This document shows positions 13,625 to 61,962 of a DNA stretch of 64,000 nucleotides, one piece after another. Position 1 is the first letter of the stretch, and each line of letters opens with the position of its first letter. Where the stretch lies: the NCBI GenBank assembly GCA_963736115.1, contig CAVTNR010000022.1, forward strand, positions 1-64,000. Direction: 5' to 3'. The translations under genes were made by a program, and so were the position numbers. Origin of the DNA: an uncultured bacterium (GTDB taxonomy: Bacteria > Zhuqueibacterota > QNDG01 > DTFT01). The notes under the pieces were generated by a model, which was given only the letters and a program-made list of their open reading frames with translations, was not told the DNA's origin and searched no databases.

Positions 13625-13910
13625 TCGCTCGCGCATTCCCCGCCGCTTGCCTTCAACCAGAAGGCATATAATAGCTTGGTCCCGTGTAGCGGGCGGCGGG
13701 GTAAGCGAGTGAATATAATCTGTTTTCTTCTTTACAGATAGAAGATTCCCCGGCTTCGCCGGACCAAGCTATACAATTTTATCTGTTTGAAGGCCCGCGG
13801 CTTGCCTTCAATACTCCAGAAATATAATAAATTGGTCCCGCAAAGCGGGGTCTTCAATAATTTAAAAATACAATTGCTTGATCCCGAGCAGCGGGCCGCG
13901 GGGAGCTTCA
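13625..13910. mobile_element. Composite of palindromic repeats carrying four 44-45 bp core+hairpin units
   Basis: Units at 13650-13693(+), 13750-13793(-), 13805-13849(+), 13851-13895(+) interrupt the host hairpins CCCCGCCGCTTG^CGGCGGGG and CCCGCGGCTTG^CCGCGGGG; mobility is inferred. Confidence 0.65.
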
Positions 13911-14927
13911 AAGTCGCCGGACGGAACCGGCGTGCAGCCGGACCCGTGCCGCGACGCTCTCGGGCGTCGTGTCGATCATGCAGCGGAAATGCCGTTCCGG
14001 GCACCGCCTGCCCCCGTGCCGCGAGCAGGGCCTGCAAGCCAGGTCCTGCTCCAGAATTTCGTCTCCGGGCCGCCAGGGCGCGCAGCCGAAACGACGCACC
14101 GTGGGGCCGAATAGGGCGATCACGTCCGTTCCGGCCGCGTCGGCCATATGCAGGGGCGCGCTGTCATTGGTCACCAGCACATCCAGCCGGCTGAGCACGG
14201 CGGCGGACTCGAGCACGGACAATGCACCCGCGCAATTGACCGACCGGCTCCCCGTTCCGTCGAGCACGGAGGCGCAGAGGCTCCTGTCCTCAGGGCCTCC
14301 CACGGCTGTGAGGTTCATCCCTTCGGCCGAAAGGATGCGCGCCAGCGCGGCGTAATGCGATTCAGGCCAGCGTTTGGTGGGCCACACCGAACCGGGCGCC
14401 AGGCCCACCAGGGGGCCGCCGGCTCGCCGCAGGGAGGCGGTGACCGCATCCGCGGTTTGTTCCTCGGCTTCGGACCATCGCAATTCCGTGCGGTCGTCGA
14501 ATGTCCGGTCCGTAAACGGCGAGAGTAAAGTCAGATAGCGGCGCCGCATGTGCAGGCCCTTCGGCGGAGTAACCGGATGTGTCAGCCCCTTCTGGCGGCG
14601 GAATCCGACGCGAGTTCGGATGCCGGCCGCGGCCATGAGAAAGGACGCTGTGGCGTGAAGCTGGAGCGAGAAGGACGCGTCATAATGTTCCGACCTCAGG
14701 CTGCGCACAAGCCGGAACAGTCCGGCCGTCTTGCGGAAAACCGTGCTCTTGTCCAATGTCCACACCCGGTGGACCGCAGGCGAGTGCTGAAACACGATTT
14801 TCGTCTGGGGTACGGTAAGCGCATCCACCTGCGCGTCCGGGAAGACCTGCGCCAGAGCCCTGAAAAACGGGGTGGAAAGTATGACATCGCCGAGATAGGC
14901 GGTCTGGATCACCAGGATTTTCTTCAT
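13908..14927 (-). CDS. GT9 LPS heptosyltransferase (WaaF/WaaQ-like)
   Basis: QTAYLGDVILSTP, APGSVWPTKRWP, NDSAPLHMA, LFGPT. Confidence 0.9.
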   Translation of the reverse strand: MKKILVIQTAYLGDVILSTPFFRALAQVFPDAQVDALTVPQTKIVFQHSPAVHRVWTLDKSTVFRKTAGLFRLVRSLRSEHYDASFSLQLHATASFLMAAAGIRTRVGFRRQKGLTHPVTPPKGLHMRRRYLTLLSPFTDRTFDDRTELRWSEAEEQTADAVTASLRRAGGPLVGLAPGSVWPTKRWPESHYAALARILSAEGMNLTAVGGPEDRSLCASVLDGTGSRSVNCAGALSVLESAAVLSRLDVLVTNDSAPLHMADAAGTDVIALFGPTVRRFGCAPWRPGDEILEQDLACRPCSRHGGRRCPERHFRCMIDTTPESVAARVRLHAGSVRRL

Positions 14928-16171
14928 CGGTCCGCCCGCCGGGCCGGATCCGCGGCCGGCTTGTTCCAGGTCCCCGCAGGCGGGAGGAGCCGGCCGTACA
15001 GATCCATATAGGCGTCCACCGTGCGGCGAATGTCGAAAGAGGCCACGGTCCGCTTCGCCTCTTGCGCCAGTCGCAGTCTCAGTGCCGGATCGGAAACGAG
15101 ACGGAGCAGGGCGTCCGCGAGACGGTCCGGGTCCCGCGGCTGAACCAGAAGCCCGCTGACGCCGTCCTGCACGGCTTCGGGTATGCCGCCGGTTCTGCAG
15201 GCCACAACCGGCACTCCCGCGGCCTGCGCGTCCAGAATGGACGTGCCCAGCCCCTCTTTTTTGCTCGCCAGCACGAACAGGTCAAACGACTTGAGATAGC
15301 GTCCCGCGTCCTTCCGGAATCCGGCGAAATGAAATCGATTTCCGAGGCCCAGGTCCGCGGCCGTGCGCCGCACGGATTTTTCGTCCGGCCCGTCGCCCAC
15401 GGCGCAGAATACGACGCGGGGATCCGCGGCCAGCACTTTGGACGCGGCGGCCAGCAGGTTGGGATAGTCCTTGTGCCCGGCCATGGACGCCACGGTACCG
15501 ATCAACACGCCGCCCTCCGGTACGCCGATTTCAGCGCGAAGGCCGGTGTCCGGCCGCATGCCGTTGAACCGGCGGATGTCGATACCGCTGCGGATGACCT
15601 CGAGTTTCCGGCCGTCGAGACCGTCCGACAGGAGCACGGACCGGATGCCTTCGGATATGCACACGATCCGGTCCAAAGCCCGGGTGCGGTATTTCAGTCG
15701 GCTCCACGGATTGGCGCCGACGTGGAAATCCACGCGACGGACCGCCACGATCCTGAGGGACGGACGAAACAGCCGCGCCCAGAGGCAGAGCGCCAGGCCG
15801 TGCGACGTGTGGGCCTGCAGGATGTCCACACCGCGGCCGCGGCAGAATCGCGCGATCCGGAAAGCCGAGAACGCGTCGAGCTCTCCGGCCAGGGGCAGGG
15901 CGAGCCGCGGGATGCCGGCGGCTTCGCATCGCCGGTCCAGTTCCGAGCCTTCCCTGCAGGCGAGCATGGAGGGCAAACCACACTCGGCCAGGCCGGTCAG
16001 AAGGGACCATACCTGCTGCTGGCCTCCGCGCCATCCCGGGGTTTCGTCCACGTGCAGGACGAAAGGATGCCTGCCGGTATCGGTCCACCCGGATTTCCGG
16101 TCACCGGTCTCGGAGAGGCCGGCCTCCTGCCGGGCAGAAGCCATCGCAGCTGGACCCGTTGCGCCGCTCAT
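14924..16171 (-). CDS. GT4 glycosyltransferase
   Basis: WRGGQQQ, RRVDF, HKDY, SKKEGLGTSILDA, GGIPE. Confidence 0.88.
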   Translation of the reverse strand: MSGATGPAAMASARQEAGLSETGDRKSGWTDTGRHPFVLHVDETPGWRGGQQQVWSLLTGLAECGLPSMLACREGSELDRRCEAAGIPRLALPLAGELDAFSAFRIARFCRGRGVDILQAHTSHGLALCLWARLFRPSLRIVAVRRVDFHVGANPWSRLKYRTRALDRIVCISEGIRSVLLSDGLDGRKLEVIRSGIDIRRFNGMRPDTGLRAEIGVPEGGVLIGTVASMAGHKDYPNLLAAASKVLAADPRVVFCAVGDGPDEKSVRRTAADLGLGNRFHFAGFRKDAGRYLKSFDLFVLASKKEGLGTSILDAQAAGVPVVACRTGGIPEAVQDGVSGLLVQPRDPDRLADALLRLVSDPALRLRLAQEAKRTVASFDIRRTVDAYMDLYGRLLPPAGTWNKPAADPARRADR

Positions 16172-16911
16172 CGGTCATCCAGCCATTGCTTCAGGTATTT
16201 CAGGTACACGCCGAATGCGGAATTCTTCGCGAGAACGAGACCGGTCCAACCGTCGAGGAATCCGAGTTGGAAAAAATACATCTTCAGGAATTTATGATGA
16301 CCGTGGAAAAACGCGCCCAGCCGGGTGAAGGTGCGCCTCCGGCCGGGAATCTGACCGGCGCCGAGAAACGCGTATCGCGTCATCTTGGCCATGTGGGATT
16401 CCAGCGTCGGATACGGGTGGTGGAACAGGAGCTCCTCCAGGACGCCGGCCGGCCCGTTCAGTACGACGCGTTCATGCACCGGGCGGTCATTGAAATTTCC
16501 GGCCCGCCGGTCGAACAGACGGAGCGGCCGGTCGTTCTGCCACCCGCTGAACCGGACGGGTTCGCCCAGATAATGCGATCGTCTGCGGATGCGGTAGCCG
16601 GAGAACGCGGGATGCCCGAGTGTTTCGCGTATCCGCGCGGCGAGGGGGTCCGACACGCGCTCGTCCGCGTCCACGGAGAGAATCCAGTTGTGCGACGCCG
16701 CCTCAACTGCGCGGCGTTTGGTGGGACCGAACCCCATCCACGGTTCCGTGATCACGCGGCATCCGGCGCCGCGGCAGAGTTCCTGCGTGCCGTCCGAGGA
16801 TCCGGAATCGAGCACCACGATTTCATCCGCCCAGGCGACCGATTTGAGGCAGGCGGAGATATTCGCGGCCTCGTTCTTCGTCACGATCACGACGGACAGT
16901 TCAGGACGCAC
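16168..16911 (-). CDS. GT2 glycosyltransferase (WaaE/KdtX-like)
   Basis: VTKNEA, DSGSSDGT, VDADE, VHE, LGFLDG. Confidence 0.88.
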   Translation of the reverse strand: MRPELSVVIVTKNEAANISACLKSVAWADEIVVLDSGSSDGTQELCRGAGCRVITEPWMGFGPTKRRAVEAASHNWILSVDADERVSDPLAARIRETLGHPAFSGYRIRRRSHYLGEPVRFSGWQNDRPLRLFDRRAGNFNDRPVHERVVLNGPAGVLEELLFHHPYPTLESHMAKMTRYAFLGAGQIPGRRRTFTRLGAFFHGHHKFLKMYFFQLGFLDGWTGLVLAKNSAFGVYLKYLKQWLDDR

Positions 16912-18112
16912 GATCCGGCTCCTCCCGGTTTCCGTCAGAAGGCGCGGCCGACGCGGAGCCGGACGGACCCTTTCGGTCGGATTCCACGATGGTCCGGATC
17001 CGGCGGGCCCGCTTCTCCCAGGTCCATTCCGCAGCCGCCTTCAGAACGTTCTCGCGCATCACCTGCCATCGGTCCCGCTGGGAAAAGAAGCGGTCGATCG
17101 CCGCGGCCATCGAGGCCTCGTTTTCCGGCGGGAAGAACAGCCCGGTTTCGTCCTCGCGGACCAGCTCCCGCATGGTGGGCAGATCCGCGGCGAGCACCGG
17201 TATGCCGTGCCCGAAATAGTCGAAAAGTTTCAGCGGGGAGGTGAGGTATCGGTTGAAAAACGTATCCCGGAGCGGCAATGCGCCGAGAGCGGCGCCGGAC
17301 AGGCAATTCTCCAGGGCCATACGATCGAGCCAGCCTGTGACTGTCACGTTGAGGCCGGCCGCGATTCCCGAGGCGTGTTTTTCAAATATCCGCACTTCCG
17401 CGGGCGTCTTCCCGCCGATGATGCGCACGGGCGGTTTTGTTTCGGACCGGGCGGCGGCCCTCAGCATCAGGTCCACGCCCTTATGGCTGTCGAGGGATCC
17501 GATGTAAACCAGTTCGCGGGGGTTGGAGGCGCCGGAGTGAACCTTCCAGAGCCCGGTCCGGGCCACGTGAACCGGCACGTCCGGAAAAGTCCTGCGGTAC
17601 CAGTCCCTCTGCGATTCCTGGAGGCAGATCACGGCGGTGAGTCCCGGTATGTTTTCCCGCTCCAGCCGCTCGAGCCGGCGTTTCCGGGACGGATGGACGT
17701 CGTCCCGCACGGACAGGTCCGCGTAAAAGTCGTGGCTCTCAAAATAGACGGGAATGCCGTATTCCCCCCGCAGGGTTTTGAGCATGGGCAGAAGCACGGG
17801 ATTTCTCGCGATTACCGCGTCGACCGCGCCGGACCGGATCAGGCCGGCCAGGCTGCGTTCGACGCTCCGGACATGCCAGAAGTGGGCGGGCATCCAGGAC
17901 GGGCTGGACACCGCGTGCACGTCCAGATTCGAAGGGGGCTTGAACCCGAAGCGGGAGCGGATGATTTCCGCCGGTTTGAGAGATGAGTTGCGGCGGATGT
18001 AATAGTGGCACCCATTGAAGGCATACGCCAGGGCCATGGCGTTATACGTGGCGAACGTGAAGCTCGGAGAGGGGGACGGAAAGCGTCCCGTGTGCGCGTA
18101 GGCGACGGGCAC
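16901..18112 (-). CDS. GT4 glycosyltransferase
   Basis: FESH, YIGSL..HKG, TSPLKLFDY, GT-B C-terminal WTWEKRA. Confidence 0.8.
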   Translation of the reverse strand: MPVAYAHTGRFPSPSPSFTFATYNAMALAYAFNGCHYYIRRNSSLKPAEIIRSRFGFKPPSNLDVHAVSSPSWMPAHFWHVRSVERSLAGLIRSGAVDAVIARNPVLLPMLKTLRGEYGIPVYFESHDFYADLSVRDDVHPSRKRRLERLERENIPGLTAVICLQESQRDWYRRTFPDVPVHVARTGLWKVHSGASNPRELVYIGSLDSHKGVDLMLRAAARSETKPPVRIIGGKTPAEVRIFEKHASGIAAGLNVTVTGWLDRMALENCLSGAALGALPLRDTFFNRYLTSPLKLFDYFGHGIPVLAADLPTMRELVREDETGLFFPPENEASMAAAIDRFFSQRDRWQVMRENVLKAAAEWTWEKRARRIRTIVESDRKGPSGSASAAPSDGNREEPDRAS

Positions 18113-18115
18113 GGG

Positions 18116-18883
18116 TCAATTCCCCGAACGCCGGCCCGAGACGCCGGCGGAAGGCATGTTCTGCGGTGCGCGTTTTTCCGCGATCGCGGCGAGATAGGCC
18201 GCCTTGCCCGGAAAGAGTCCGTTCAGCAGACGGTCGAGGGCAAGGGCCGCGCCGTTCACCGGCAGACGCGCAGACGCCAGCCATTTCACGGCGCGCTTGT
18301 TCACGATGCGTTCGATCCGGACCACTCGGAATCCTGTTCCATTGATACGCTCCGCGAATCCCGCTTCGTCATACGTGCGGAGGTGGCCGCTGCGGTGCGC
18401 GGAGGCTCCGCATTTCGGACAGCGGACGGTTTTGGCTTCCAGGTTCTCGCGATAGGGCACGCAGAATACGGCCCTTCCGCCCGGCTTGAGCAATTCCGAA
18501 AGTTTCCGCAGGGCCGCCCGGTCGTCCGGAATATGCTCCAGCACCTCCTGGCAGACGAGGGCGTCCGCCGGTTCCATGGAGAACCGGAACAGGTCCGCTC
18601 GGTGGACGCGGATCTTCCAGTCCGCGGCCGCGTCCGCGAAAGCGGCCAGGCTGACCGGGTTCGCGTCCACCGCGGTTACGGACCATCCGCGGGCCGCCAT
18701 CAGGACGGACATGAATCCCGTGCCGCAGCCGGCGTCCACGACGGCCGCAGGCCGTCGCGGGAGCATGCGGAGCAGCCGCCGATACCGCAGAATTTCGTTC
18801 CGGTAACGCCGCGTGCGGGTGTCGGCCGTCCATACGTCGTACAGAGGGTTCGTCTCCAGCGGATGGTCGCAGGCTGTTTTCAT
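18116..18883 (-). CDS. Class I SAM-dependent methyltransferase
   Basis: VDAGCGTG, EVLEHI, LKPGG; carries a CPKC...H..GH insert. Confidence 0.85.
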   Translation of the reverse strand: MKTACDHPLETNPLYDVWTADTRTRRYRNEILRYRRLLRMLPRRPAAVVDAGCGTGFMSVLMAARGWSVTAVDANPVSLAAFADAAADWKIRVHRADLFRFSMEPADALVCQEVLEHIPDDRAALRKLSELLKPGGRAVFCVPYRENLEAKTVRCPKCGASAHRSGHLRTYDEAGFAERINGTGFRVVRIERIVNKRAVKWLASARLPVNGAALALDRLLNGLFPGKAAYLAAIAEKRAPQNMPSAGVSGRRSGN

Positions 18884-20106
18884 CGGACCGCCCCGTTCCG
18901 CAGAACGCGGTCGAACAGTCGCGACAGGTCCGCGGCCTGCTCCCTGCGGTCGAAGCGTTTCACGAACCGGGAGGCGCAGGGCCTATTCAACCGTCCGCGG
19001 CGCCAATCGTCGAGGAGCTTCAGGACCTCGCGTTTCACGGATGCGGGATCCCCCTGGAAGGCCACACGGGCGTTCCGGTAAGCGGACATCATCCGCGTCA
19101 GTTCTCCGGGTCCGTAAGCGACGGCCAGGATGGGATTACCGGTGGCCATGTACTCGAACACCTTCTGGGTCAGAACCTCGGACGCGGCCGTGCCCGTTGC
19201 AAGCAGGAGCAGAGCGTCGGCCTGCCGCATCACCGAGAGCACGGACCGGTGCGGCTGGTATGTTGAAAATTCGGAGACGCGCCTCACGTTCGGCAGGTTC
19301 CGGACGGCACTGCGGTTACCGGTGCCGCCGATCACGCGCAGGGTGATCCGGTCCGCCCATTCGGGACGGGTCCTCAGGATTTCCTCAAGCGCGTTCAGGA
19401 AAACGGCCGGGTCGCTTTTACGCGTGAAACGGCCGCAATAGGCGATCGTCAGCCGGCCTGCGGTTTTTCTGCCTTCGGATGCGGATTCCGGAAAGTCCTC
19501 CGGGTCGTATCCGTTGGGCAGGAAATGGAGAACGGCGGAGGCGGGCGCCGCGGCCCGGATGTTGGCCTTTGCCTGCGGCGTGACCGCGACCACCGCACGG
19601 CACCGGCTGAGCGCCTCTTTTTCCGCCCGTTTCATCCTGTCGCGGCCGGACGGCGCGACGTTCGGATCCATGGACCACTCGTCCCGCAGGTCCGCGACCC
19701 ATGGAATGCCGGTCCGGTCCGCGATTTCAGAGGCGATGATCTGAACCGAATGGGGCGGAGACGACGCAAACAGAAGATCAATTCCATCCTCCCGGACGAT
19801 CCGGACCGCGCGGCGCACGGCCGCTTTCCGCCAGGAGATGTGTCGATCCGGAAAACGTCTGCGTCCGGCCATTCGCCGCCAGGCGGACGGCATCCAGGCG
19901 GCCCAGTCCATGACCCGGTGCACCCGGACGCCAGCGGGCAGATCCGCCAGCAGGGACGCGTCCCGCGTCACCAGCGGGTGTTTTGCCGTCAGGATCACGG
20001 GCTGGTATCCGTTTTCCGGCAGATACTTGACGAATTTCAGCACGCGCTGAACCGCGGGGCCTCCTTCGGGAGGGAAGTGGTAGGCGAGGACCAGGACGCG
20101 TTTCAT
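18880..20106 (-). CDS. GT4 glycosyltransferase
   Basis: YHFPP.GG..VQR..KFVKYL, SSPPHS, DLRDEW, NGYD, KVFEY. Confidence 0.87.
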   Translation of the reverse strand: MKRVLVLAYHFPPEGGPAVQRVLKFVKYLPENGYQPVILTAKHPLVTRDASLLADLPAGVRVHRVMDWAAWMPSAWRRMAGRRRFPDRHISWRKAAVRRAVRIVREDGIDLLFASSPPHSVQIIASEIADRTGIPWVADLRDEWSMDPNVAPSGRDRMKRAEKEALSRCRAVVAVTPQAKANIRAAAPASAVLHFLPNGYDPEDFPESASEGRKTAGRLTIAYCGRFTRKSDPAVFLNALEEILRTRPEWADRITLRVIGGTGNRSAVRNLPNVRRVSEFSTYQPHRSVLSVMRQADALLLLATGTAASEVLTQKVFEYMATGNPILAVAYGPGELTRMMSAYRNARVAFQGDPASVKREVLKLLDDWRRGRLNRPCASRFVKRFDRREQAADLSRLFDRVLRNGAVR

Positions 20107-21050
20107 ATATTTTTCAGGAGACGGTAATTGCGAAATCCGCCGATCGGCCGTCCGCCCAGGACGCGTCGTTCAATGAAGGACAGGAAACGGTATTTCAGGC
20201 ATTCGTGCTTGTGGGGCTGACGCCGCGGGTCTGGTTTTCCGCTCGTCTGAAGCATGCCCGCCCAGTCGAGCCGCGATATTCTGTCCTTCATGACCGCGGG
20301 ATGCGTGCCGGTGAAAACAGCGAGCCTGTCCATGGGGCCGTAATCGAAGGCCTGGGGCCCGGTGTCGTAATGCGATGCGGCGCGCTTCAGGCCCCAGTGA
20401 ACGGAATCGAGCGCGCGCTTCTTGTTCTGCATGAGACGGGGCGGCCTCACCCATCCGTAATGGTAAATCGTCGCGTCGACTTTGGCCACACGGAGCGGCC
20501 GGTGGCCACGCGGCTGGCGGGGATGTTCATAATGACTGAAACTCCGGAAGGACTGGGCGCTCTGCCAGGAACGGATGTCCGGCCGGTTCCGGACAATGCG
20601 GACCTCGAAGGGATACCAGCCATGACCGCCGTGGACATGGCTGTAATCGCCCCAGAAATGGCGGTACCGGAAAAGCAGACCCTCGACCTCGGGCCGATCC
20701 GCCAGTTCCTCGCATCGCGCGCGCACCGCGGGCAGGTCCTGCTCGTGCGCCACCTCGTCGGCCTGGAGATAGAAAAGCCATTCCCCGGCGCAGGCATTCT
20801 TCGCGATATCGGTCTGAACCGCGTTGATCGCGCCTTTGATGAAGTACCGTTCGTCCCACACCGTTTCGATGATGCGGACCTTGGGATCCCGGATGGACCG
20901 GATCGTTTCAAGAGTGGCGTCGTCCGGATCGCCCTTGCCGACCGCCACGACGAACTCGTCCACGATCGGGAGAACGGAGGCGATGGATTCCGCGACCGGG
21001 TAATAGAGTTTGACGCCGTTCCGAACGAATGAAAAACCGCTGATTTTCAT
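20103..21050 (-). CDS. GT2-like glycosyltransferase
   Basis: ISGFSFVRNG, YLQADE, HFWGDY, YHYGWVRPP. Confidence 0.8.
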   Translation of the reverse strand: MKISGFSFVRNGVKLYYPVAESIASVLPIVDEFVVAVGKGDPDDATLETIRSIRDPKVRIIETVWDERYFIKGAINAVQTDIAKNACAGEWLFYLQADEVAHEQDLPAVRARCEELADRPEVEGLLFRYRHFWGDYSHVHGGHGWYPFEVRIVRNRPDIRSWQSAQSFRSFSHYEHPRQPRGHRPLRVAKVDATIYHYGWVRPPRLMQNKKRALDSVHWGLKRAASHYDTGPQAFDYGPMDRLAVFTGTHPAVMKDRISRLDWAGMLQTSGKPDPRRQPHKHECLKYRFLSFIERRVLGGRPIGGFRNYRLLKNI

Positions 21051-21360
21051 GCATAAACCGATAGGTTAAACCGGAAAAATACAGCTTAAAATAAATATTT
21101 TTAATACCATTCGCAAATCCTTTTTCACCGGACGGCCGGTTCCGAGAGTCCTCGGAGCGAGGACTTGCGTTCTGATTCCTATGCGGCCGGAATAATCAGG
21201 ACGGTCGGGGAATGCCACCGCTCTTCCGGCAATCCTGAGGCCCCGGATCCGGACGGTCCGGACCCGGTCTTTCGATGGTTCATGACCGGTTTGCGGGAAG
21301 CCGTAAAGATGAATAAAATATCGTTTTGGATTGTCTTTTTTTATGTTATATTACTCGATT

Positions 21361-24513: not shown

Positions 24514-25286
24514 ATCGCATCACGAACAGGCGCGCCGCCCGGTGGATGGCGCTGGGATTCTGGGCCGCGGGCGCAGTCGCCTCGGCCGACTCGACGGACG
24601 GCGCCTTTCAGTTCCGGCGTGTCGAGAACCGGGCCTTCGGGGTCGGGGAAGTCCTGACATTCGATGTGGCCTACGGCGTGGTGAACGCCGGCACGGCCGT
24701 CATGAGCATCCCGGACACCCAGTGGGTGCAGGGAAGGCCCTGTCTCCACATCGTAACCACGGCCGAATCCAACTCTTTCTTCTCGAAGATCTTCAAGGTG
24801 CGCGACCGGGTCGAGTCCGTGATGGATATGGAGGGGCTGTTCAGCTGGCATTTCCACAAACAGCTCCGCGAGGGAGGATACCGATCCAACCGGACCGAAC
24901 GGTTCGATCCCGTGCGTCGGCTCGCGTACACGAAGCGCGACACGTTCGAGACGCCGCCGTTCGTCCAGGATATCCTCAGCGCCTTTTATTTCACCCGTAC
25001 CCAGCCCCTGAATCCGGGCCAACCGTTCGACATCGATTGCTTCAGCGGCAAGCATGTCTATCCGCTCCGGGTGCTCGTGCATCGGCGGGAGAAGGTGGAA
25101 GTGCCCGCCGGAAAATTCCGGTGCGTCGTGGTGGAACCGGTGCTCCGCGGTGAGGGGCTCTTCAACCAGAAGGGAAAACTGACCATCTGGCTGACGGACG
25201 ACGAGCGCCGGATTCCCGTGCTGATGAAGAGCAAGGTGCTGGTCGGCTCGATCGACTGCCGGCTGAAAAAAATCGTCCGCCCCTGA
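24510..25286 (+). CDS. DUF3108-family exported protein
   Basis: Signal peptide, GE.L.F, QDILSA, VPAGKF, IWLTDDERRIPV. Confidence 0.8.
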   Translation: MNRITNRRAARWMALGFWAAGAVASADSTDGAFQFRRVENRAFGVGEVLTFDVAYGVVNAGTAVMSIPDTQWVQGRPCLHIVTTAESNSFFSKIFKVRDRVESVMDMEGLFSWHFHKQLREGGYRSNRTERFDPVRRLAYTKRDTFETPPFVQDILSAFYFTRTQPLNPGQPFDIDCFSGKHVYPLRVLVHRREKVEVPAGKFRCVVVEPVLRGEGLFNQKGKLTIWLTDDERRIPVLMKSKVLVGSIDCRLKKIVRP

Positions 25287-25319
25287 CTCGGGCGGCCGCA
25301 ACGAAGGGACGGATCGCCC

Positions 25320-26291: not shown

Positions 26292-26320
26292 GCCTCCGCC
26301 GGACGGAAACGCAACCGACG

Positions 26321-52333: not shown

Positions 52334-52354
52334 CTTAAAGATGAGCTCCTGAAC

Positions 52355-53131: not shown

Positions 53132-53165
53132 GCGGCTTTATAATCCGGCGAGGATTGGATAATAA

Positions 53166-53259
53166 AGTTCATAGTTCATGGTTCATAGTTAAGAGAAATT
53201 TTGGAAAAGCGTTTATTTTTCTTTTTCAACAATGAACTATGAACCATGAACCATGAACT
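53166..53259. repeat. Heptamer inverted-repeat element
   Basis: AGTTCATAGTTCATGGTTCATAGTT ... AACAATGAACTATGAACCATGAACCATGAACT. Confidence 0.9.
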
Positions 53260-53262
53260 TCT

Positions 53263-53709: not shown

Positions 53710-53948
53710 CCGATCCGCTCCCCTATCGAATTAACGTCCGAAATGACTATTCCAAATCGCGGGAATCAAGTTAAAACAGGAACTGAATCCTTTCAAAATT
53801 GAAAGAATCCCCGAGAAAATACCCTGTTTTTAATGGATCAAGCAATTATTACACCAAAGAGAACGATCAGATGGGTTGAAGAAGGGGACAATGGCTGGGA
53901 TCGAAATTTCCCGAGAGGTTTGTTTATCGCATAATATACAAGTATTTA

Positions 53949-54797: not shown

Positions 54798-54803
54798 GCG
54801 GAA

Positions 54804-55730
54804 TCACTCCCGTTCCGGAAGCGGCCGGTCGGCGGAGCGGAGGATGCGGCGTCCGATCCCATACAGCAGAATGCCGCAGAGGATACCGGCGATGGCGTCC
54901 ACGGCGTGGTGGTACCGGCAGTAGACCGTTGCCAGCGCGACACCGACGGCAAGCGGTAGAATGACGAGCCCCACGGGACGGTTATACTGCAAGCCGGCCA
55001 ACGTGATGGTGAACGCGGCGGCGACATGCGAACTGGGAAACGCGCCGCCCCGCATGGTGCCGTTCGACTGAACCCACTGGATGAAATGGAGGAAGAATCC
55101 GCCTTCGGGCTCGACCGTGTGCTTGTCCCTCAGAATGACCCAGGCGCCCTCGGACGGGAAGACGAGGAACAGGAGAAAGGAAACGGCGAAGGTGAAGGTG
55201 ACCAGAAAGAGAAATTCAACCGTTTCCTGCCGCTTCCCGCGGAAATAGAGGGGAAAGGAGATTGCGGCGATGAAGAAATAGTAGATCGTGTAGAAGAAAT
55301 TCATGAGTTCGGTCAGCCAGGGCCGGAACAGCCGCTCGACCCAGACGGTGGGGTGCACCCCGAATATCCAGAGGTCCGCTTTGACGACGAAATCGTTCGC
55401 CCAGTACGGGAAAATCATGGTCACCAGGTTGTCCATCTCGGTCCAGGCGAAGGCTATCCACAGAACGGGATAGAACGTCCGCAGGAAATCGATCGCCGGA
55501 CCGGGGCGTTTGGACTGCCATCGGATCAGGCCGAGCACCGCGGCGCAGAGCCCGGCGTGCACGAAGGGCACGGCAGCCCAGTTCCGGACGTCGCGGTGGA
55601 AGGGCACCACGAGAATACCGAGTAGGGCCAGATAGGCGAGGATGACCGCGTCCATCGGCCGCAGATCCCACTCGGAGTATCGCTTGCGCAGAAAGCCCAT
55701 GATGCCCATTGACGGCCGCTCCGTTTTCAT
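54804..55730 (-). CDS. PAP2-family membrane phosphatase/phosphotransferase (AUR1/PAP2_3-like)
   Basis: AFPSSHV, ATVYCRYHHAVD, multiple TM segments. Confidence 0.87.
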   Translation of the reverse strand: MKTERPSMGIMGFLRKRYSEWDLRPMDAVILAYLALLGILVVPFHRDVRNWAAVPFVHAGLCAAVLGLIRWQSKRPGPAIDFLRTFYPVLWIAFAWTEMDNLVTMIFPYWANDFVVKADLWIFGVHPTVWVERLFRPWLTELMNFFYTIYYFFIAAISFPLYFRGKRQETVEFLFLVTFTFAVSFLLFLVFPSEGAWVILRDKHTVEPEGGFFLHFIQWVQSNGTMRGGAFPSSHVAAAFTITLAGLQYNRPVGLVILPLAVGVALATVYCRYHHAVDAIAGILCGILLYGIGRRILRSADRPLPERE

Positions 55731-55736
55731 TTGTTG

Positions 55737-55765
55737 AAATTACAGATTCGATCTGCAAGGGTCAA
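55737..55765 (-). promoter_or_regulatory. Sigma70 promoter, probable leaderless transcript
   Basis: TTGACC-N17-TAATTT-N6-ATG(55730). Confidence 0.55.
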
Positions 55766-55820
55766 GTTGTTTTTTATACGGGGAAAGACGGGAAATGTTT
55801 TCAGATGTCCACTGTAAAAC

Positions 55821-55886
55821 GTTCCGAGTTCCGGGTTTCGGGTTCCGGGTTGAAGAACTCGGAACACGGAACTCGAAACCTGGAAC
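55821..55886. repeat. Second heptamer inverted-repeat family (GTTCCGR)n...(YCGGAAC)n
   Basis: GTTCCGAGTTCCGGGTTTCGGGTTCCGGGTT-gaag-AACTCGGAACACGGAACTCGAAACCTGGAAC. Confidence 0.88.
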
Positions 55887-55898
55887 GCTTTTCATGAT

Positions 55899-57301
55899 TC
55901 ACGTTTCTTCTCCCACCAGATCCGGTTCAATCACCCGCATCGTTTTCCATTTCCCCCGGATGAACCGCACGGTGAACACGATTCCGATCACGCAGATGTA
56001 CAGGGTGGCGAACGCCCACAGGGTTTCCAGCGTCGCATCGAACCACAGGACGGCGGCGATCGAAGGCAGGGCCATCAGGCTCCAGGACAGCGCCATGGAC
56101 ACCCACATCACGAATCGGGTGTCCCCGGCGCCTTTCACGGCAGATGCGAACACGATATTTGCGGTGTCGAAGAGGGAGTAGAAGGCGACGAATTTCAGCA
56201 GGCGGACGGCCGTGGCCGCGATCGGGGCGAAACGGACGGGGTCCGCCTGAGCCGCGAATGCGGAGATGAACACGCCAGGGGAGAAAAAGTAAACGGCGGC
56301 CACCGAGGCCATGTAGGCGAAGGTCAGCTCGAAAATGAGGCGCACCGAGCGCGCCGCCTCCTCGGGCCGGTTCTCGCCGAGCCGCTGGCCCACGAGAATC
56401 GACGCCGCCGTGCCGAAACCGAACATGGGCATGAAGGCCAGGTGGTTGATGCTGAAGGCGATGTTGGTCGCGGCCAGCGCGTCCGTACCGAGCCGGCCGA
56501 TGAGAATTAAAAGAGCGTGAAACCCGAGGTTTCCAGCGCGAAATGCAGGCCGTTCGGAAAACCGAACCGGGCCAGCCTGCGAAACAGTCGGACATCCGGC
56601 CGCCAGCCTTTCCTGAAACCGAAACGGTCGCCGTCTCCCCGCCGCAAAGCCAATGCGCCGTATACAGCCATTGACAGAATCTGCGAGAACACCGTGGCCC
56701 AGGCAGCGCCTGCGATTCCCATTTCCGGGAAAGCCCATTTCCCGAAAACGAGCGCATAATCGAAGAATAGGTTGAACAGTGTCGCGGCGAGGGTCACCCA
56801 GAGCACCGTCCAGGTCCTTCCCAGGCCGCTGAAATGATTGGCCAACGCGGATGCGGCGGCCGCGGGGAAAAGGCCGAGCATCATGATGTTGAAATAGGTC
56901 CGCTCGAGGGACTGAAGGCCCGCCGGATGGCCGAGGCTGCTGAACAGCCAACCGGAGAATGGAAGGGTCAGAAGGCCAATGATGCCTGCGGCGAGCGACA
57001 GATAGATCCCCTGCCACACGACCGGCCCGATCCGGTCAAACCTGCCGGCTCCGAAATATTGGGCCGTGAATGTGCCGACATAACCCGCTGCGCCGATAAA
57101 GAGAGAGGCGATTGTAAAATAGATCATGCCTGACGGCATGGCCGCGGCCACGGCCTCAGGCGCGTACCAGGATAGGAATACGCGATCGATGACTGCCTGA
57201 ATGGTCAGCGATCCTTGGCTGAAGATGAGCGGAAGGGAAAGCCTGAGGATATCTTTATATCCCCCGTCCCTGTGCCAGCGTTTTTTCATTCTGATAATCA
57301 T
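55899..57301 (-). CDS. MATE-family efflux transporter (one frameshift near 56510, probable homopolymer error)
   Basis: LSLPLI, AQYFGAG, EMGIAGAAWAT in one frame; GTDALAA, VGQRLG, GAGDT in the other; one extra T restores GFTLFLILIGRLG. Confidence 0.88.
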
Positions 57302-57531
57302 GGCTAAGTTTTCAATATAGTGAATTTAAATGCGGATGTAAAGCGCACCTCCCGAAGGTGGGGGTACCTTCGGGAGGTACGCTTAATGCCAAAAATGACT
57401 ATGCGGCATGAAAAATTGGCAGTTTTTCATCGATCAGGTCAAATAGACATGAACCTATTAATATTGTATAATTATTGTATTTGTTATTTAAAATCATAAA
57501 AATCAATTACTAAAAAGCTCATAAAAACTTG

Positions 57532-57547
57532 TGGCATCCCTATTGCA
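57532..57547 (+). promoter_or_regulatory. Sigma54 -24/-12 promoter of the Hsp20 gene
   Basis: TGGCAT-CCCTA-TTGCA, with an AT-rich tract and inverted repeats upstream. Confidence 0.7.
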
Positions 57548-57607
57548 TTATTATTGTTCAGCTGACGGAAATCAATATGAAAATAGAGAGATGAAAGGAG
57601 AATAACC

Positions 57608-58039
57608 ATGACACTCGTACGCTACAATCCCATGCGACATCTGGCTGAGCTTCCGCTGGATGTTGAGACGTTCTTCGAAAATTACGGTCTGGGTCTGGGC
57701 CGCGACACGGTCTGGAATCCTTCGGTGGACATCCTGGAAACCGAGGACGGCTATGAGCTGAAAGCCGAAGTCCCGGGCCTGAAAAAGGAAGACATTCAGG
57801 TGTCGCTCGAGGACGGCCTGCTGACCATTCGGGGCGAGAAGAAGCAGGAAGCCGAGACCCAGAAGAAAAATTACCACTCCATGGAGCGGGTGTTCGGCAA
57901 GTTCGAACGGTCCTTCCGCCTGCCCGAGAACGTGAAGGGCGAAGCGATTCACGCGAAGTACGACAACGGCGTGCTCAGCATCGAGATCCCGAAGTCCGAG
58001 GCGGCCAAACCGAAGCAGATCGAAGTGAGCGTGGAATAA
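57608..58039 (+). CDS. Hsp20/alpha-crystallin small heat-shock protein
   Basis: PSVDI.ET, EVPGLKKEDI, ER.FGKFERSFRLP, A.YDNGVL.I.IPK. Confidence 0.96.
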   Translation: MTLVRYNPMRHLAELPLDVETFFENYGLGLGRDTVWNPSVDILETEDGYELKAEVPGLKKEDIQVSLEDGLLTIRGEKKQEAETQKKNYHSMERVFGKFERSFRLPENVKGEAIHAKYDNGVLSIEIPKSEAAKPKQIEVSVE

Positions 58040-58066
58040 ACGCAAGCCGCGCATGAGGTGCAAACC

Positions 58067-58099
58067 AGCGGGGTCTCTGTGAGACCCCGCTTCTTTTTT
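58067..58099 (+). terminator. Intrinsic terminator
   Basis: AGCGGGGTCTC-tgt-GAGACCCCGCT-TCTTTTTT. Confidence 0.85.
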
Positions 58100-58114
58100 G
58101 GCCTTTCACTTTTA

Positions 58115-58197
58115 AGTTCATAGTTCATGGTTCCTAGTTCATAGTTGAAAAGGAAAATCTGTCTCAACAATGAACAATGAACTATGAACCATGAACT
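58115..58197. repeat. Heptamer inverted-repeat element
   Basis: AGTTCATAGTTCATGGTTCCTAGTTCATAGTT ... AACAATGAACAATGAACTATGAACCATGAACT. Confidence 0.9.
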
Positions 58198-58207
58198 CTC
58201 TTTTCAG

Positions 58208-58236
58208 TTGACATTCCCCCCGTCCCTGCCTAACTT
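58208..58236 (+). promoter_or_regulatory. Sigma70 promoter, probable leaderless transcript
   Basis: TTGACA-N17-TAACTT-N6-ATG(58243). Confidence 0.6.
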
Positions 58237-58242
58237 GTCGCG

Positions 58243-61200
58243 ATGAAATTCATCGCGGACTTCCACATCCATTCGCATTTCTCGCTCGCCACGAGCGGCC
58301 TGCTCAAGCCGGAGCATCTCGACCGGTGGGGCCGCATCAAGGGCATCCGGGTCATCGGAACCGGCGACTTCACCCACCCGGGCTGGGTGGCGGAATTGAA
58401 GGAAAAGCTGGATCCCGCGGAACCGGGTTTGTACAGACTCAAGCCGGCGCTCCGTCTGCCCGCATTTGGAGGCCCGACGGATGCGGACGACGGCGTCCGC
58501 TTCATGCTCACCGCAGAGATCAGCTGTATCTACAAGCGGTCGGGCCGCGTGCGCAAGGTGCACAATGTTGTCTTTGCGCCGGATTTCGAGAGCGCGGAGC
58601 GCATCCAAAGCCGGCTCAGGTCCATGGACTTCAATATCACCTCGGACGGACGGCCCATTCTCGGTTTCGATTCACGGGACCTGCTTGAACTCTGCCTGAA
58701 CGCCTCTCCGGACATCTTCTTCGTCCCGGCCCACATCTGGACGCCGTGGTTTTCCGCGCTCGGCGACAAGTCCGGATTCGATTCGATCCGCGAATGTTAC
58801 GCGGACCTGTCGGATCACATTCATGCCGTGGAAACCGGGCTCTCGTCCGATCCAGCGATGAACCGGCTGTGCAGTCAACTCGATCCGTACGCCCTCATCT
58901 CTAATTCAGACGCCCATTCGCCCGAGAAACTTGGACGCGAGGCGAACCGGTTCGATGCGGAACTCTCGTACCCCGCCATCATGGAAGCGCTGAAGCATCC
59001 GGACTCGGGCCGGTTTCTCGGAACAGTGGAATTCTTTCCCCAGGAAGGCAAATACCACCACGACGGACACCGCAAATGCGGCATTTCCTGGACGCCGGAT
59101 GAGACGGATCGGCATGCCGGGATCTGTCCCGTGTGCGGGAAACAAGTGACCGTCGGCGTTCTCAATCGTGTGCATCAGCTGGCGGACCGCAGCGGCCAGG
59201 AGGAGAAAATCGGACGGCCGACGTTCCGGTCCATCATTCCGCTCTGCGAAGTGCTGTCCGAGATCCGAGGCACAGGTCCGCACAGCAAGGCGGTGCAGGC
59301 TGATTACGCGGCCGTGGTCCGGAAACTCGGAAGCGAGCTGGACATTCTGCTCGAAGCGGAAGCAGAGGACATCCGGAATGCCGGGGGCGCATTGCTCGTC
59401 GAGGCGGTCAAGCGGATGCGGGATGGACGCGTGTCCGTTGAGGCGGGCTATGACGGGGAATACGGCCGTATTCGCGTATTCGGTCCGGAAGACAGACAGT
59501 CGCTCAGTCAGGAGAGTCTGTTCATCGGTGATTCCGAGCCAGTCGGACAACCGGTCCGGCGGGGGCGCATGAAAAAAAGCGAGGCCGCGGTCGGTGAAAA
59601 AGGATCGAACGGGTCCGGAAGAAAGGAGACGGGGAAGGACGCCGCAGGCGCCGGATTCATCCTTTCGGCACGGCCGAATACCCGTGCCCTTTCAGCGGAG
59701 GAGGGATCCGGCGGGACCGCAGGAGAGGGATCCGGGACGACCGGCCGAGTTCCGCTCAACGCGGAGCAGGAAGCGGCCGCGATTCACGACAGCGGGCCCG
59801 CGCTGGTTCTGGCCGGTCCCGGAACAGGCAAAACAGCCGTGCTGACCGGCCGGATTCTCCGCCTGATACAAGGTCGCGGCGTTCCGCCGGAACGCATTCT
59901 CGCCATCACCTTCACCAACAAGGCTGCTGAAGAGATACGCAGCCGTGTGTCCGCGGCCACCGGGGGGCCGGTAGAAGGGAAGCGGATGCCGTCCGTCCTG
60001 ACTTTCCATTCCTTCGGCCATGCTTTGCTCCGGGAGCGGCCGGACTGTTTCGGCCGGAACCGTGATTTCCGCATCGCGGATGAAGACGACACGCTCGATA
60101 TCCTCAGAACCTTATATCCGGAATCAAAAGACGTTCGTCGTTTCGCGAAAATGCTGAAACAGTCGGTGGGAAAAGCCGGACCGGAGACGGGAGTGACGGA
60201 CGCGGATGCTTCGGACGGGGAACAGCAGGCGCTGAGGGACCGTTACGAAGAAGCGCTCCGGTCCGAAAACCTGTTTGATTTCAGCGATCTGCTGACCCGG
60301 CCGTTGCGGCTGTTCCGGGAGGATGCGGAATGGGCCCGTTCCGTTGCCGGCCGGTACGATCACATCCTGGTGGACGAGTTCCAGGACGCGGACGAAGCGC
60401 AGTACGAGTGGATGAGGCTTCTGGCTGGGCGGGATTCCGGGGCGGGGTCGCCTCATCTCTGGGCGGTGGGAGACCCGGACCAGTCCATATACGGTTTCCG
60501 CGGCGCCAGCCCGGTTTTCATGACCCGGTTCACCGAGGATTTCCCGGGCGTCACGGTGTACCGTCTGACGCGCAGTTACCGGTGTCCGGATACGGTGCTG
60601 CGGGCATCGGGGATGGTTTTACTGAAAGCCGGTTCCGGGTTCCGAGTTCCGGGTTCCGTGTTGGAAGAGAGCGGTTCCGCGTTCCGCGTTCCGGGTTCCG
60701 GGTCGAAAAATGAAAATGATTCGGAAAATGATTCGGGGGGTGTGTCATGCCCGTTAAAACGGACCAAGCAATCCTATTTCTTGAATAGGGAAGGCCCGCA
60801 TTCCTTAAGCGGGCATCCAGGGGCGTGGGTAGAGAGGTCGAATCTCCGCGGAACGGACGAGAAGGTCAAGGTCCGCATTGCGGGAAACGTATCCGAGGCG
60901 TCCGAGGCGGAGTTCATCAGCCGCACCATTGAGGCGATGACGGGCGGCGTTCGGTTCTTTTCCATGGACAGCGGCATCACAACCGGAGCGGAGGAGGAAT
61001 CGCTTGGTTTTTCCGACTTCGCCGTGCTGTGCCGGATCAGCCGTCAGTTTCCGGCATTGGAAAAAGCATTTCGCGATCACGGCATTCCGTACCGCCGCTC
61101 GGACGCGGAGCCGTTCTACAGGCGGGAGCCCGCGAAAACAATCGTTAAGGCGCTTAAAAAATGTTCCGTGTTTCGGGTTCCGGGTTCCGGGTTAAAAGAA

Positions 61201-61962
61201 ACGGGTTCCGAGTTCCGAGTTCAGGGTTCCGGGTTGAAAAACGAAAATGATTCAGGGGGGGATGTCATTCCCGTTGAAACGGACCAAGCAATTCTATTTA
61301 TTGATCGTGGAAGGCCCGCGTTCTTGAAGCGGGAATCCAGGGAGGGGGGAGAGAGTTCAGAGGAAGAGAAGGCTTCCGAGTTCCGGGTCCCGAGTTCGGA
61401 GTTGAACGAAAAGGAATGGTCCGAGCTTGCGGCCGTCACGGGCAGGGTGCCTGTCCGCGACCTGATCCACAGGCTGATCTCCGTCCTCCCTCCGGTTTCG
61501 GATCCCGCGGACAGGCTCGATCTGGAACTGCTGGCGGAGCGGTCCGTCCCGTTCGGAACGGACTTGCCCGCTTTTCTGGCCGCGCTGGCCCTGGGATCAG
61601 GACCCGACTGGGTCCGTACCGGAGGCGATTCCGTATCGCTCTTCACCTTGCACGCGGCCAAGGGGCTGGAATTCCCGTGCGTCTTCATCGCGGGCGTGGA
61701 GGACGGCCTTCTGCCCTACACCCTGTCCGGTCAATCCTCCTGCGACCCGGAAGAGGAACGCCGTCTGCTTTACGTGGGCATGACGCGCGCCAAGAAGCAT
61801 CTGATCCTGTCCCACGCCGACCGGCGGGAGCTGTTCGGCCGCATGCGCAATCCCGCGAGAAGCCCGTTTCTCGATGACATCGAACAGACGCTTCTCAGCA
61901 CTGGAAAAGCGCAGGGAAAGAGGGGCCGAAAGCCCGGCCGGGACCAGTTGAATCTGTTTTAG
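58243..61962 (+). CDS. EndoQ-family PHP nuclease fused to UvrD/PcrA SF1 helicase
   Basis: DFHIHS, GTGDFTHP, PAHIWTPW, ETGLSSD, NSDAHS, GKYH.DGH..C, CPVCG; then AGPGTGKT, TFTNKAA, VDEFQD, GDPDQSIYGFRG, TLHAAKGLEF, EERRLLYVGMTRA. Confidence 0.93.
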   Translation: MKFIADFHIHSHFSLATSGLLKPEHLDRWGRIKGIRVIGTGDFTHPGWVAELKEKLDPAEPGLYRLKPALRLPAFGGPTDADDGVRFMLTAEISCIYKRSGRVRKVHNVVFAPDFESAERIQSRLRSMDFNITSDGRPILGFDSRDLLELCLNASPDIFFVPAHIWTPWFSALGDKSGFDSIRECYADLSDHIHAVETGLSSDPAMNRLCSQLDPYALISNSDAHSPEKLGREANRFDAELSYPAIMEALKHPDSGRFLGTVEFFPQEGKYHHDGHRKCGISWTPDETDRHAGICPVCGKQVTVGVLNRVHQLADRSGQEEKIGRPTFRSIIPLCEVLSEIRGTGPHSKAVQADYAAVVRKLGSELDILLEAEAEDIRNAGGALLVEAVKRMRDGRVSVEAGYDGEYGRIRVFGPEDRQSLSQESLFIGDSEPVGQPVRRGRMKKSEAAVGEKGSNGSGRKETGKDAAGAGFILSARPNTRALSAEEGSGGTAGEGSGTTGRVPLNAEQEAAAIHDSGPALVLAGPGTGKTAVLTGRILRLIQGRGVPPERILAITFTNKAAEEIRSRVSAATGGPVEGKRMPSVLTFHSFGHALLRERPDCFGRNRDFRIADEDDTLDILRTLYPESKDVRRFAKMLKQSVGKAGPETGVTDADASDGEQQALRDRYEEALRSENLFDFSDLLTRPLRLFREDAEWARSVAGRYDHILVDEFQDADEAQYEWMRLLAGRDSGAGSPHLWAVGDPDQSIYGFRGASPVFMTRFTEDFPGVTVYRLTRSYRCPDTVLRASGMVLLKAGSGFRVPGSVLEESGSAFRVPGSGSKNENDSENDSGGVSCPLKRTKQSYFLNREGPHSLSGHPGAWVERSNLRGTDEKVKVRIAGNVSEASEAEFISRTIEAMTGGVRFFSMDSGITTGAEEESLGFSDFAVLCRISRQFPALEKAFRDHGIPYRRSDAEPFYRREPAKTIVKALKKCSVFRVPGSGLKETGSEFRVQGSGLKNENDSGGDVIPVETDQAILFIDRGRPAFLKRESREGGESSEEEKASEFRVPSSELNEKEWSELAAVTGRVPVRDLIHRLISVLPPVSDPADRLDLELLAERSVPFGTDLPAFLAALALGSGPDWVRTGGDSVSLFTLHAAKGLEFPCVFIAGVEDGLLPYTLSGQSSCDPEEERRLLYVGMTRAKKHLILSHADRRELFGRMRNPARSPFLDDIEQTLLSTGKAQGKRGRKPGRDQLNLF
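60631..60820. repeat. Composite repeat inside the helicase CDS (heptamers + REP-like hairpin + 45-bp unit), copy 1
   Basis: (GTTCCGR)n arms, then GTCATG^[60750-60794]^CCCGCATTCCTTAAGCGGGCATCCAG. Confidence 0.85.
61163..61404. repeat. Composite repeat inside the helicase CDS, copy 2
   Basis: (GTTCCGR)n arms, then GTCATT^[61270-61314]^CCCGCGTTCTTGAAGCGGGAATCCAG, then another heptamer run. Confidence 0.85.

Follow-up and report, generated by a model that had tools for sequence, protein, structure and literature searches.

A 45-nt hairpin-and-core repeat nested in larger palindromes and variably present among related uncultured bacteria

In a 64,000-nt stretch of DNA from an uncultured member of the Zhuqueibacterota (G000:C22:1-64000, where G000 denotes assembly GCA_963736115.1; this whole stretch is referred to as the window), we identified copies of a discrete 45-nt module that is present in about 150 copies per genome. 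Each unit is composed of a 13-nt GC hairpin (5-bp stem, 3-5-nt loop), here called the mini-hairpin, directly 5' of an AT-rich core of 31-32 nt. Species of a single genus differ by the clean gain or loss of single units and of whole arrays, and the unit at a fixed site is replaceable by another subtype. Only one order of uncultured bacteria harbours the family. In our best interpretation, the unit is a new relative, of unusually small size, of the REP/BIME/BOX-type interspersed palindromic repeats, belonging to no named family and not categorically new.

Architecture of the unit and its copies in the window

The G000 assembly spans 3.34 Mb in 31 contigs with 60% GC and is 87% complete; all genomes compared here are incomplete assemblies. 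A sequence-only reading of the window had described seven copies of a 44-45-bp entity and proposed a profile search for more. Its motif, written as a regular expression, returned 64 matches across G000, and an nhmmer profile derived from 55 fixed-length copies returned 152 at E<0.01, exactly seven of them within the window. The count of seven therefore holds for the window, but not for the genome with its approximately 150 members. The pattern GGAYCAAKYWAT-N13-20-TGAAGR matched 88 times in G000, in comparison with no match for a reversed-pattern control.

Units could be parsed from 143 of the 152 profile matches. The core was 32 nt long in 77 of these, 31 nt in 51 and of another length in 15, and the mini-hairpin was paired at all five positions in 107 and at four of five in 16. 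The stem CCCGC/GCGGG was present in 72 units, and variants with compensatory changes on both sides were observed as CCGGC/GCCGG (15 units), GCCGC/GCGGC (6) and CCAGC/GCTGG (3); the mini-hairpin is maintained by selection. The ends of the core are conserved as A[CT]CAAG[CT]WAT ... ATTGAAG[GA], many copies featuring ATCA instead of ACCA next to the hairpin. Across 50 G000 copies, per-position information content increases where the hairpin starts and drops within a few bases of the end of the core. The consensus common to the G000 units and 15 copies from other families of the order, which reside in loci of about 37-55% GC with unrelated flanks, corresponds exactly to hairpin plus core. Because the information borders and this cross-family consensus coincide, the portable entity is the unit of approximately 45 nt, as had been claimed from the window alone.

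The 5' end of the unit is formed by one constant hairpin, and its two ends (the GC hairpin and ...ATTGAAGR) are not inverted copies of each other. Single-linkage clustering separated the cores of the 143 units into subfamilies of 50, 43 and 8 members plus many singletons. A second hairpin that includes the 3' end is restricted to one large subfamily (43 of 143), in which GCCTTC/GAAGGC covaries with GTCTTC/GAAGAC.

Four of the window copies are arranged, together with end and connector modules, in a composite intergenic array at positions 13620..13915. Unit 1 (13650..13693, minus strand) contains a 31-nt core (13650-13680) with an internal GCCTTC/GAAGGC hairpin and a mini-hairpin at 13681-13693, and is enclosed by an outer stem in which 13638-13645 pairs with 13694-13701. 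The predicted DNA fold of 13635-13705 on the minus strand has an energy of -19.7 kcal/mol (z = -4.6), and none of 200 shuffles was as stable. Unit 2 (13750..13793, plus strand; fold z = -3.1) features the CCGGC/GCCGG stem variant in its mini-hairpin (13750-13762), followed by core 13763-13793. It is positioned head-to-head, across an 11-bp spacer, with unit 3 (13805..13849, minus strand; core 13805-13836, mini-hairpin 13837-13849), which in turn lies in tandem with unit 4 (13851..13895, minus strand; core 13851-13882, mini-hairpin 13883-13895) at a 46-bp period.

Units 5 and 6 are located within a helicase coding sequence, a 1239-aa open reading frame (ORF) at 58243..61962 on the plus strand with UvrD-helicase (PF00580, 230.7 bits) and UvrD_C (PF13361, 109.4 bits) domains, which runs uninterrupted through both units. 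Unit 5 (60750..60798, plus strand) is composed of mini-hairpin 60750-60762 and core 60763-60794, and unit 6 (61270..61318, plus strand) of mini-hairpin 61270-61282 and core 61283-61314. Unit 5 lies in the 5' stem arm of a palindromic module that we call H (60735..60823, plus strand), a hairpin bordered by a G-run/GTCAT at one end and by ATCCAGG at the opposite end. Unit 6 is hosted by another H module, at ~61255-61343. The remaining core (7451-7482, plus strand) is devoid of a mini-hairpin and terminates a 93-bp insert (7390..7482, plus strand) that follows a tRNA-Ser(TGA) gene. This insert, the first 60 nt of which are unique within G000, is flanked by two copies of a 16-bp tRNA 3'-end sequence (7374-7389 and 7483-7498). 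All seven cores, the mini-hairpin directly 5' of six of them and the three contexts (intergenic array, tRNA duplication and ORF) agree with what the sequence-only reading had reported.

Nesting in larger palindromes and turnover between species

Across G000 the unit is nearly always found in or beside the apical part of a larger hairpin-forming repeat. The sequence-only reading had recognised the 45-nt entity and missed both this nesting in larger palindromes and the movement of whole composite arrays. One type of host is a long GC stem, CCCCGCCG ... CGGCGGGG, often with GCGAGCG-type arm extensions, which encloses at least 41 of the 143 units; a unit-free hairpin of this long-stem type with a CAAG loop lies beside C12:424560. 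Another host is the REP family that flanks the gene for a RAYT transposase on contig C2. Among 110 GCGGCTAC sites, eight rows were flagged as filled by a unit; by manual reading, about seven of these eight are REPs of the C2 family and about 40 rows are unit-free REPs. Five of the unit-free C2-type REPs (manual reading) follow one another every 56 bp on the minus strand of contig C14. A third host type comprises REP-like palindromes, in three to four copies, related to those around the RAYT gene on contig C19. The H palindrome is a fourth: six filled and 28 empty rows were labelled by script, of which manual reading retained about 19 as genuinely empty and five as genuinely filled, with the unit entering at one and the same base in all five. 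In the low-GC families the host is different again, with the unit at the 3' foot of an A/T-rich hairpin with an 11-bp stem that is unrelated to the other hosts.

The 152 units are grouped into 101 clusters, namely 62 singles, 28 pairs, 10 triples and one quadruple, the last being the window array. The 39 multi-unit clusters share a grammar of end modules, a connector of ~50 bp and units placed head-to-head or in 46-bp tandem, and arrays with one to four units of ~45 bp plus end and connector modules reach ~100-300 bp in total.

According to crude ORF-based gene calls covering 81% of the genome, 130 of the 152 units are intergenic. Within co-directional intergenic regions, 43 units lie on the strand of the genes and 44 on the opposite strand. 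Clusters occupy tandem, convergent and divergent intergenic regions in numbers of 54, 21 and 10, the corresponding background counts being 1214, 335 and 342. Such a distribution is difficult to reconcile with promoters, terminators or oriented small-RNA genes and is in accordance with REP-like selfish or structural DNA. TATAAT-like hexamers on the reverse strand were considered as a promoter and rejected, since the position expected to hold the -11 A is one of the least conserved and no gene-orientation preference exists; the spacing of ~15 bp to any -35-like hexamer (manual reading) also disfavours this role. As terminators the hairpins do not qualify because no T-run follows them. A CRISPR array is defined by direct repeats of at least 23 nt with unique spacers of similar length and was likewise rejected, since the units are mostly single or in inverted pairs and the 46-bp tandem period leaves at most ~13 variable bases.

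Turnover was analysed by comparison with three species of the same genus (G001-G003), with genes of ~85-90% DNA identity. At the two helicase sites, exact 45-bp blocks (60754-60798 and 61274-61318) are missing from G002:C211 and G001:C246, both of which retain the H module at each site without the unit. The clean presence or absence at orthologous loci that the sequence-only reading had proposed as a check was thus observed at two positions against two species. Each block is bordered on both sides by CCCG, and the CCCG of the host stem serves as the 5' arm of the mini-hairpin of the unit. Both DNA comparison and protein alignment confirmed that each insertion adds 15 codons in frame and without a stop.

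Whole arrays behave in the same manner. The window array is missing, as a block of ~296 bp, from all three sister species (G001:C2, G002:C72 and G003:C284), where only 1-32 bp separate the matches to its flanking genes. Of the sister species, G002 shares a 246-bp array located at C14:112078-112323, whereas G001 and G003 lack it. This array directly follows the start codon of a gene, and the frame is open through all 82 added codons in both G000 and G002. By manual reading, the downstream product in G001 and G003 starts with an apparent signal peptide; the start codon actually used may be one within the end of the array. At the tRNA-Ser site of G001 (C2), the 16-bp 3'-end sequence occurs only once and the insert is missing. 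After the same tRNA-Ser, G002 and G003 contain an unrelated palindromic element, ~200 bp long and composed of CACGGAT-like repeats (L050, G002:C72, ~14540-14730; L052, G003:C284, ~6365-6560). Because different elements occupy it in G000 and in G002/G003, this tRNA 3' spot is an insertion hot spot for several repeat families. Finally, G002 lacks the unit-bearing H module of C8:111156. In the reverse direction, ~100 kb of sister DNA orthologous to unit-rich G000 regions contained only two unit sites (six non-redundant units); turnover is accordingly high.

Shared sites showed that units are also exchanged in place. In the C14 array, G000 and G002 have middle units with different types of hairpin stem and with cores that are dissimilar over much of their length; total length is equal, and the remainder of the array is far less different. 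The unit at C8:245105 occupies the same place in G000, G002 and G003, with its ends kept and its middle changed (32 versus 34 nt); the G003 copy is interrupted by an insertion of ~300 bp, and the G001 copy is degenerate. At C8:96871 both G000 and G002 have units, differing in number and orientation. Swapping between copies would keep the ends alike and accounts for the combination of conserved ends and a variable middle.

Several further observations concern the helicase gene. Larger in-frame inserts at window positions 60600-60720 and 61150-61250 consist of 7-bp repeat blocks (GTTCCGR-like) plus the H palindrome and translate to GSGFRVPGSG...-type stretches, which are absent or shorter in G001:C170 and G003:C50. 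On their own, the 7-bp blocks returned dozens of matches of 90-97% per sister genome, at many loci in G001-G003. In G001 the 3' part of the helicase gene exists twice, as the diverged copies L053 (C170) and L056 (C246), one with and one without the large inserts; either a genuine paralogue or an assembly that mixes strains could account for this. Pfam returned nothing at E<=0.001 for the N-terminal ~500 aa of the ORF (58243-59700), the start of which we had initially presumed to be a PHP-type phosphoesterase domain, an impression that was not confirmed.

Distribution and possible means of spread

Among the 31 species genomes of the order, 13 contain the pattern and 18 do not, and the reversed control gave no match in any of them. 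The counts are 88 in G000, 49 in G001, 40 in G002, 31 in G003, 19 in G026, 11 in G028, five in G019, four each in G023 and G027, three each in G004 and G005, and one each in G030 and G012. In a phylum-wide sample of 167 genomes, ten of the 136 outside the order had one or two matches each, which is the level of the reversed control (two matches). A stricter pattern applied to one genome per prokaryote species returned 67 stretches, nearly all in genomes of this order, with about five single matches in unrelated taxa; the chance expectation is ~6, a rough figure that assumes equal base frequencies. Rfam identified only three tRNAs in the window at gathering score and nothing at E<=1 over 13550-13960, and the unit had no match in plasmid and phage collections. 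These searches agree with the sequence-only reading, in which the unit was not recognised as a described family. Five DNA sequencing runs each contained at most 0.06 of the sampled words, and no RNA run containing them was found.

We hypothesise that the unit is non-autonomous "selfish" DNA that would spread via a process acting on single-stranded, hairpin-folded DNA, most likely because a Y1 HUH (RAYT-type) transposase, the gene for which lies elsewhere in the genome, mobilises it in trans. Frequent gene conversion among copies would keep the ends uniform and shuffle the middles. Insertions would be expected to persist mainly between genes, and within genes only as whole codons without a stop (45 bp corresponding to 15 codons). 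For this combination of trans-mobilisation, by a RAYT-like HUH enzyme or a similar hairpin-directed one, with gene conversion, we infer a probability of about 0.5.

RAYT is the only one of the tested enzyme families represented in every unit-bearing genome. G000 encodes three RAYT genes scoring above the NCBIfam cut-off of 80 bits (90.2, 87.8 and 133.9 bits), located at G000:C17:75009-75746, C2:71373-71915 and C19:57396-57902 (L001-L003), each flanked by its own GTAG-type REPs. The IS200 model scored below its cut-off in all three Y1 proteins. RAYTs abound throughout the order, individual genomes having up to 21 matches.

Other candidates for the enzyme were less successful. The reverse transcriptase (RT) family RVT_1 (PF00078) had no match in G000, G001 (96% complete), G002, G003, G004, G019, G023, G026, G027 or G028 and was found in only two of the 13 unit-bearing genomes; IS110 was present in five of 13 and Y2/IS91 in two of 13. 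All three were rejected because they do not co-occur with the unit. Units as the ends of a multi-copy insertion sequence (IS) in G026 were rejected because the similarity shared among 14 loci extends over only ~150-450 bp. An enzyme gene bounded by inverted units in G000 was also rejected: the three such intervals contain ordinary genes, as judged from ORFs read by eye with no family search, one of them presumably encoding a tyrosyl-tRNA synthetase.

A number of results weigh against mobilisation by a RAYT-like enzyme. None of the three RAYT genes of G000 is flanked by units, the nearest unit being ~2 kb or more away, and 20 RAYT loci fetched from G001, G026 and G028 contained no unit within ~1 kb; the enzyme gene bounded by the same ends, which the sequence-only reading had looked to, was thus found at none of the 20 fetched and none of the three own loci. 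The Y1 HUH candidate named in that reading is present in all 13 unit-bearing genomes, but also in 17 of the 18 unit-free ones, and with 30 of 31 genomes positive its co-occurrence is uninformative as a pointer to the enzyme. Orthologues of the three G000 RAYTs have at most 38% identity outside the genus, and no group of them tracks the unit. In incomplete assemblies (87% for G000) the enzyme gene could be missing. The strand of the units relative to the sign of 50-kb GC skew revealed no bias (41/41/38/32), although this is a weak test on contig fragments; IS200/IS605-type single-strand transposition gives a strong orientation bias. Only 19 of the 143 units have an identical twin, mostly within the same composite, and given so few twins there is no sign of a recent burst in G000. 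The unit also lacks the GTAG or CGTC tag of REPs, with A[CT]CA (TGRT on the other strand) beside its stem, whereas the true REPs of G000 carry GTAG (GGTAGCC...).

The insertion borders belong to the same group of unfavourable results, since the direct repeats there vary in length: 4 bp (CCCG) at the two helicase sites and one REP, 9 bp at C27:147743 and C8:116986, and 16 bp at tRNA-Ser. Most copies have no border repeat, the first four nucleotides of the hairpin being identical to the four after the core in nine of 143 units against a shuffled mean of 28, which rules out a fixed 4-bp target duplication as a general rule. CCCG precedes the insert in the two helicase cases and the one REP case, and other hosts are entered after other sequences. 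Neither inverted termini nor a clear duplication was seen at the two array insertions with known empty sites. An apparent 8-bp duplication, AAAAGAAC, around units in G026 was ruled out because a unit-free host hairpin (L149) already holds both copies.

These irregular borders are better accommodated by an enzyme-free alternative, in which template switching or microhomology-mediated repair at replication stalled in GC hairpins would copy the unit, followed by ordinary gene conversion and with no dedicated transposase. The two cleanest insertions are bounded by CCCG, which is the 5' arm of the target hairpin, and the other border repeats of 9 and 16 bp include hairpin sequence, which fits variable homology tracts better than a fixed duplication. 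The swapping of units at fixed orthologous sites, the lack of strand bias and the failure of every tested enzyme family to track the unit are consistent with such a process. However, neutral copying would not be expected to preserve the ends and a 31-32-nt core across families ranging from ~40% to 60% GC with unrelated hosts. Nor would it predict the very regular positions within hosts, such as the single base (manual reading) at which all five filled H modules are entered. We consider this alternative possible and, on balance, rather unlikely.

A bolder version of the RAYT-type hypothesis appears doubtful to us. In that version the unit would be a "parasite of parasites", in which a hairpin-specific enzyme or an unusual RAYT activity would insert it into the stems and loops of other palindromic repeats, namely the REPs of two RAYT families, H modules and long GC stems, and into genes (as 15 codons) and would swap its middle like a cassette. 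The unit would then be among the smallest bacterial mobile DNAs, having persisted across the order.

An element acting in cis for its host is improbable. The core might be the site of a nucleoid or regulatory protein, or the hairpin with A[CT]CA a signal for RNA processing or stability, kept by selection and recruited into REP-like repeats as in the BIME/RIP of E. coli. The conservation of the ends and the fixed core length across the order, the location of the unit in the loop of stable stems and the old orthologous site at C8:245105, which kept its ends and changed its middle, are in accordance with this proposal; gene conversion, however, explains conserved ends with changed middles equally well. 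The mild excess of convergent clusters and deficit of divergent ones (21 and 10 versus 335 and 342) is a pattern known for REPs at 3' ends, but orientation relative to neighbouring genes shows no preference (43 versus 44). The B-type 5' end resembles an IHF-like ATCAA-N4-TTR site, and by manual reading the match holds for part of the copies only. In addition, most sites are unshared even within the genus, 18 of the 31 genomes of the order are without the unit, and Rfam provided nothing at E<=1.

That the units are sites or scars left by a site-specific recombinase, such as the tyrosine recombinase among the candidates of the sequence-only reading, is very improbable. According to this view the ends would be imperfect inverted arms around a variable overlap and the tRNA-Ser copy the remnant of an island. 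The 7451 copy does lie beside a 16-bp tRNA 3'-end duplication, the classical integrase footprint, and the ends share CC..CAAT that can be read as inverted arms. However, a tRNA context applies to only one of the 152 copies, the tRNA insert starts with 60 nt that occur nowhere else in the genome, and the "arms" are poorly symmetric and ~12-14 bp apart, in comparison with the 6-8-bp overlap of known tyrosine-recombinase core sites. Border repeats of 4, 9 and 16 bp also speak against a recombinase acting at a fixed site, and no integrase gene was present next to the arrays examined, the integrase family itself not having been searched. A retro-element, in which an RT would recognise hairpin-ACCA as a tRNA-like 3' end and insert the cDNA, is already close to refuted, because RVT_1 is missing from G000-G004 and from all but two of the 13 unit-bearing genomes and a large share of copies feature ATCA, although hairpin plus ACCA mimics an acceptor minihelix in many copies and some tandem copies, in which the 5' half of the hairpin is missing, might represent 5' truncations.

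Relation to known repeat families and other observations

REPs are short imperfect palindromes of 20-40 bp that form stem-loops and have an unpaired GTAG (or CGTC) tetranucleotide at one end. The unit shares with REP, BIME and REPIN repeats a short GC-rich hairpin with a covarying stem, fully paired in 107 of 143 units, as well as its occurrence in tens to hundreds of mostly extragenic copies, with head-to-head pairs, clusters and some intragenic members. REP stems are reported to range from 5 to 13 bp (PMC3733652), which places the 5-bp stem of the unit at the short extreme. The nesting of one palindromic repeat inside another is already described for REPs (PMC3733652; PMC3116915; PMC3337134). 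Beyond the missing tag, the unit differs from REPs by its 31-32-nt AT-rich tail with conserved ends, which has no REP counterpart. It also forms no REPtron, since none of 23 RAYT loci is flanked by units, and is itself inserted into the REPs of two RAYT families.

The BOX elements of Streptococcus pneumoniae (boxA - boxB(n) - boxC), whose boxB module is 45 bp long, are similarly modular composites in which the number of internal modules varies, here from one to four units. In BOX, the internal module folds alone with few contacts to the end modules and can stay open-reading within genes (PMC3049150), and terminal inverted repeats and target duplications are reported (PMC3049150). In contrast, we observed neither terminal inverted repeats nor target duplication, and the unit also occurs alone inside unrelated host hairpins; this comparison is by description and not by sequence.

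Rickettsia palindromic elements (RPEs) are small palindromic repeats of ~100-150 bp that are tolerated in frame within protein genes. The two 15-codon helicase insertions and the 82-codon array right after a start codon resemble them in this respect. The unit differs by its length of 45 bp, its mostly intergenic location (130 of 152) and the absence of the CGTC tag reported for RPEs (PMC3733652).

Comparison with IS-derived families gave a similar outcome. Elements of the IS200/IS605 family have subterminal hairpins at both ends and no terminal inverted repeats, and insert 3' of a fixed tetra- or pentanucleotide without a true duplication. Their miniature derivatives (PATEs) differ from the unit, which has one constant hairpin and no replication-strand bias in a genome that contains no canonical IS200 TnpA. 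IS1397 targets the loops of REP hairpins and is a full-size IS with its own transposase. A classical miniature inverted-repeat transposable element (MITE) was rejected on the basis of the missing terminal inverted repeats and of border repeats of 0, 4, 9 or 16 bp. The unit thus falls outside the named families because it has no GTAG/CGTC tag or REPtron (REP) and no inverted termini or fixed duplication (MITE, BOX).

Small interspersed repeats shape bacterial genomes, and how most of them move remains unknown. The unit provides a sharp test case, combining a length of 45 bp, exact empty sites, a defined position in host hairpins, in-frame survival in an essential-type helicase gene and an apparent cassette-like exchange of its middle. 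Should an enzyme be found, the unit would define a minimal substrate on which hairpin-directed insertion of DNA can act; should there be none, the unit would illustrate clearly how sequences spread in nature through hairpin-driven templating. The ~150 units and their arrays also matter in practice for metagenome-assembled genomes of this lineage, where they are likely to break assemblies and to mislead gene prediction, false N-terminal extensions being one example.

Other intergenic regions of the window also vary in length. In comparison with G001:C2, the interval 11374-11526 is 152 versus 210 bp, 21132-21293 is 161 versus 102 bp and 24673-25167 is 494 versus 101 bp, and the profile detected no unit in these three intervals. 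At 9199-9305, an insert of ~108 bp contains a GTAG-type REP (GGTAGCCGCGGCC...) along with other GC hairpins. None of G001, G002 and G003 has this insert, and 17-27 bp are found at that place instead.

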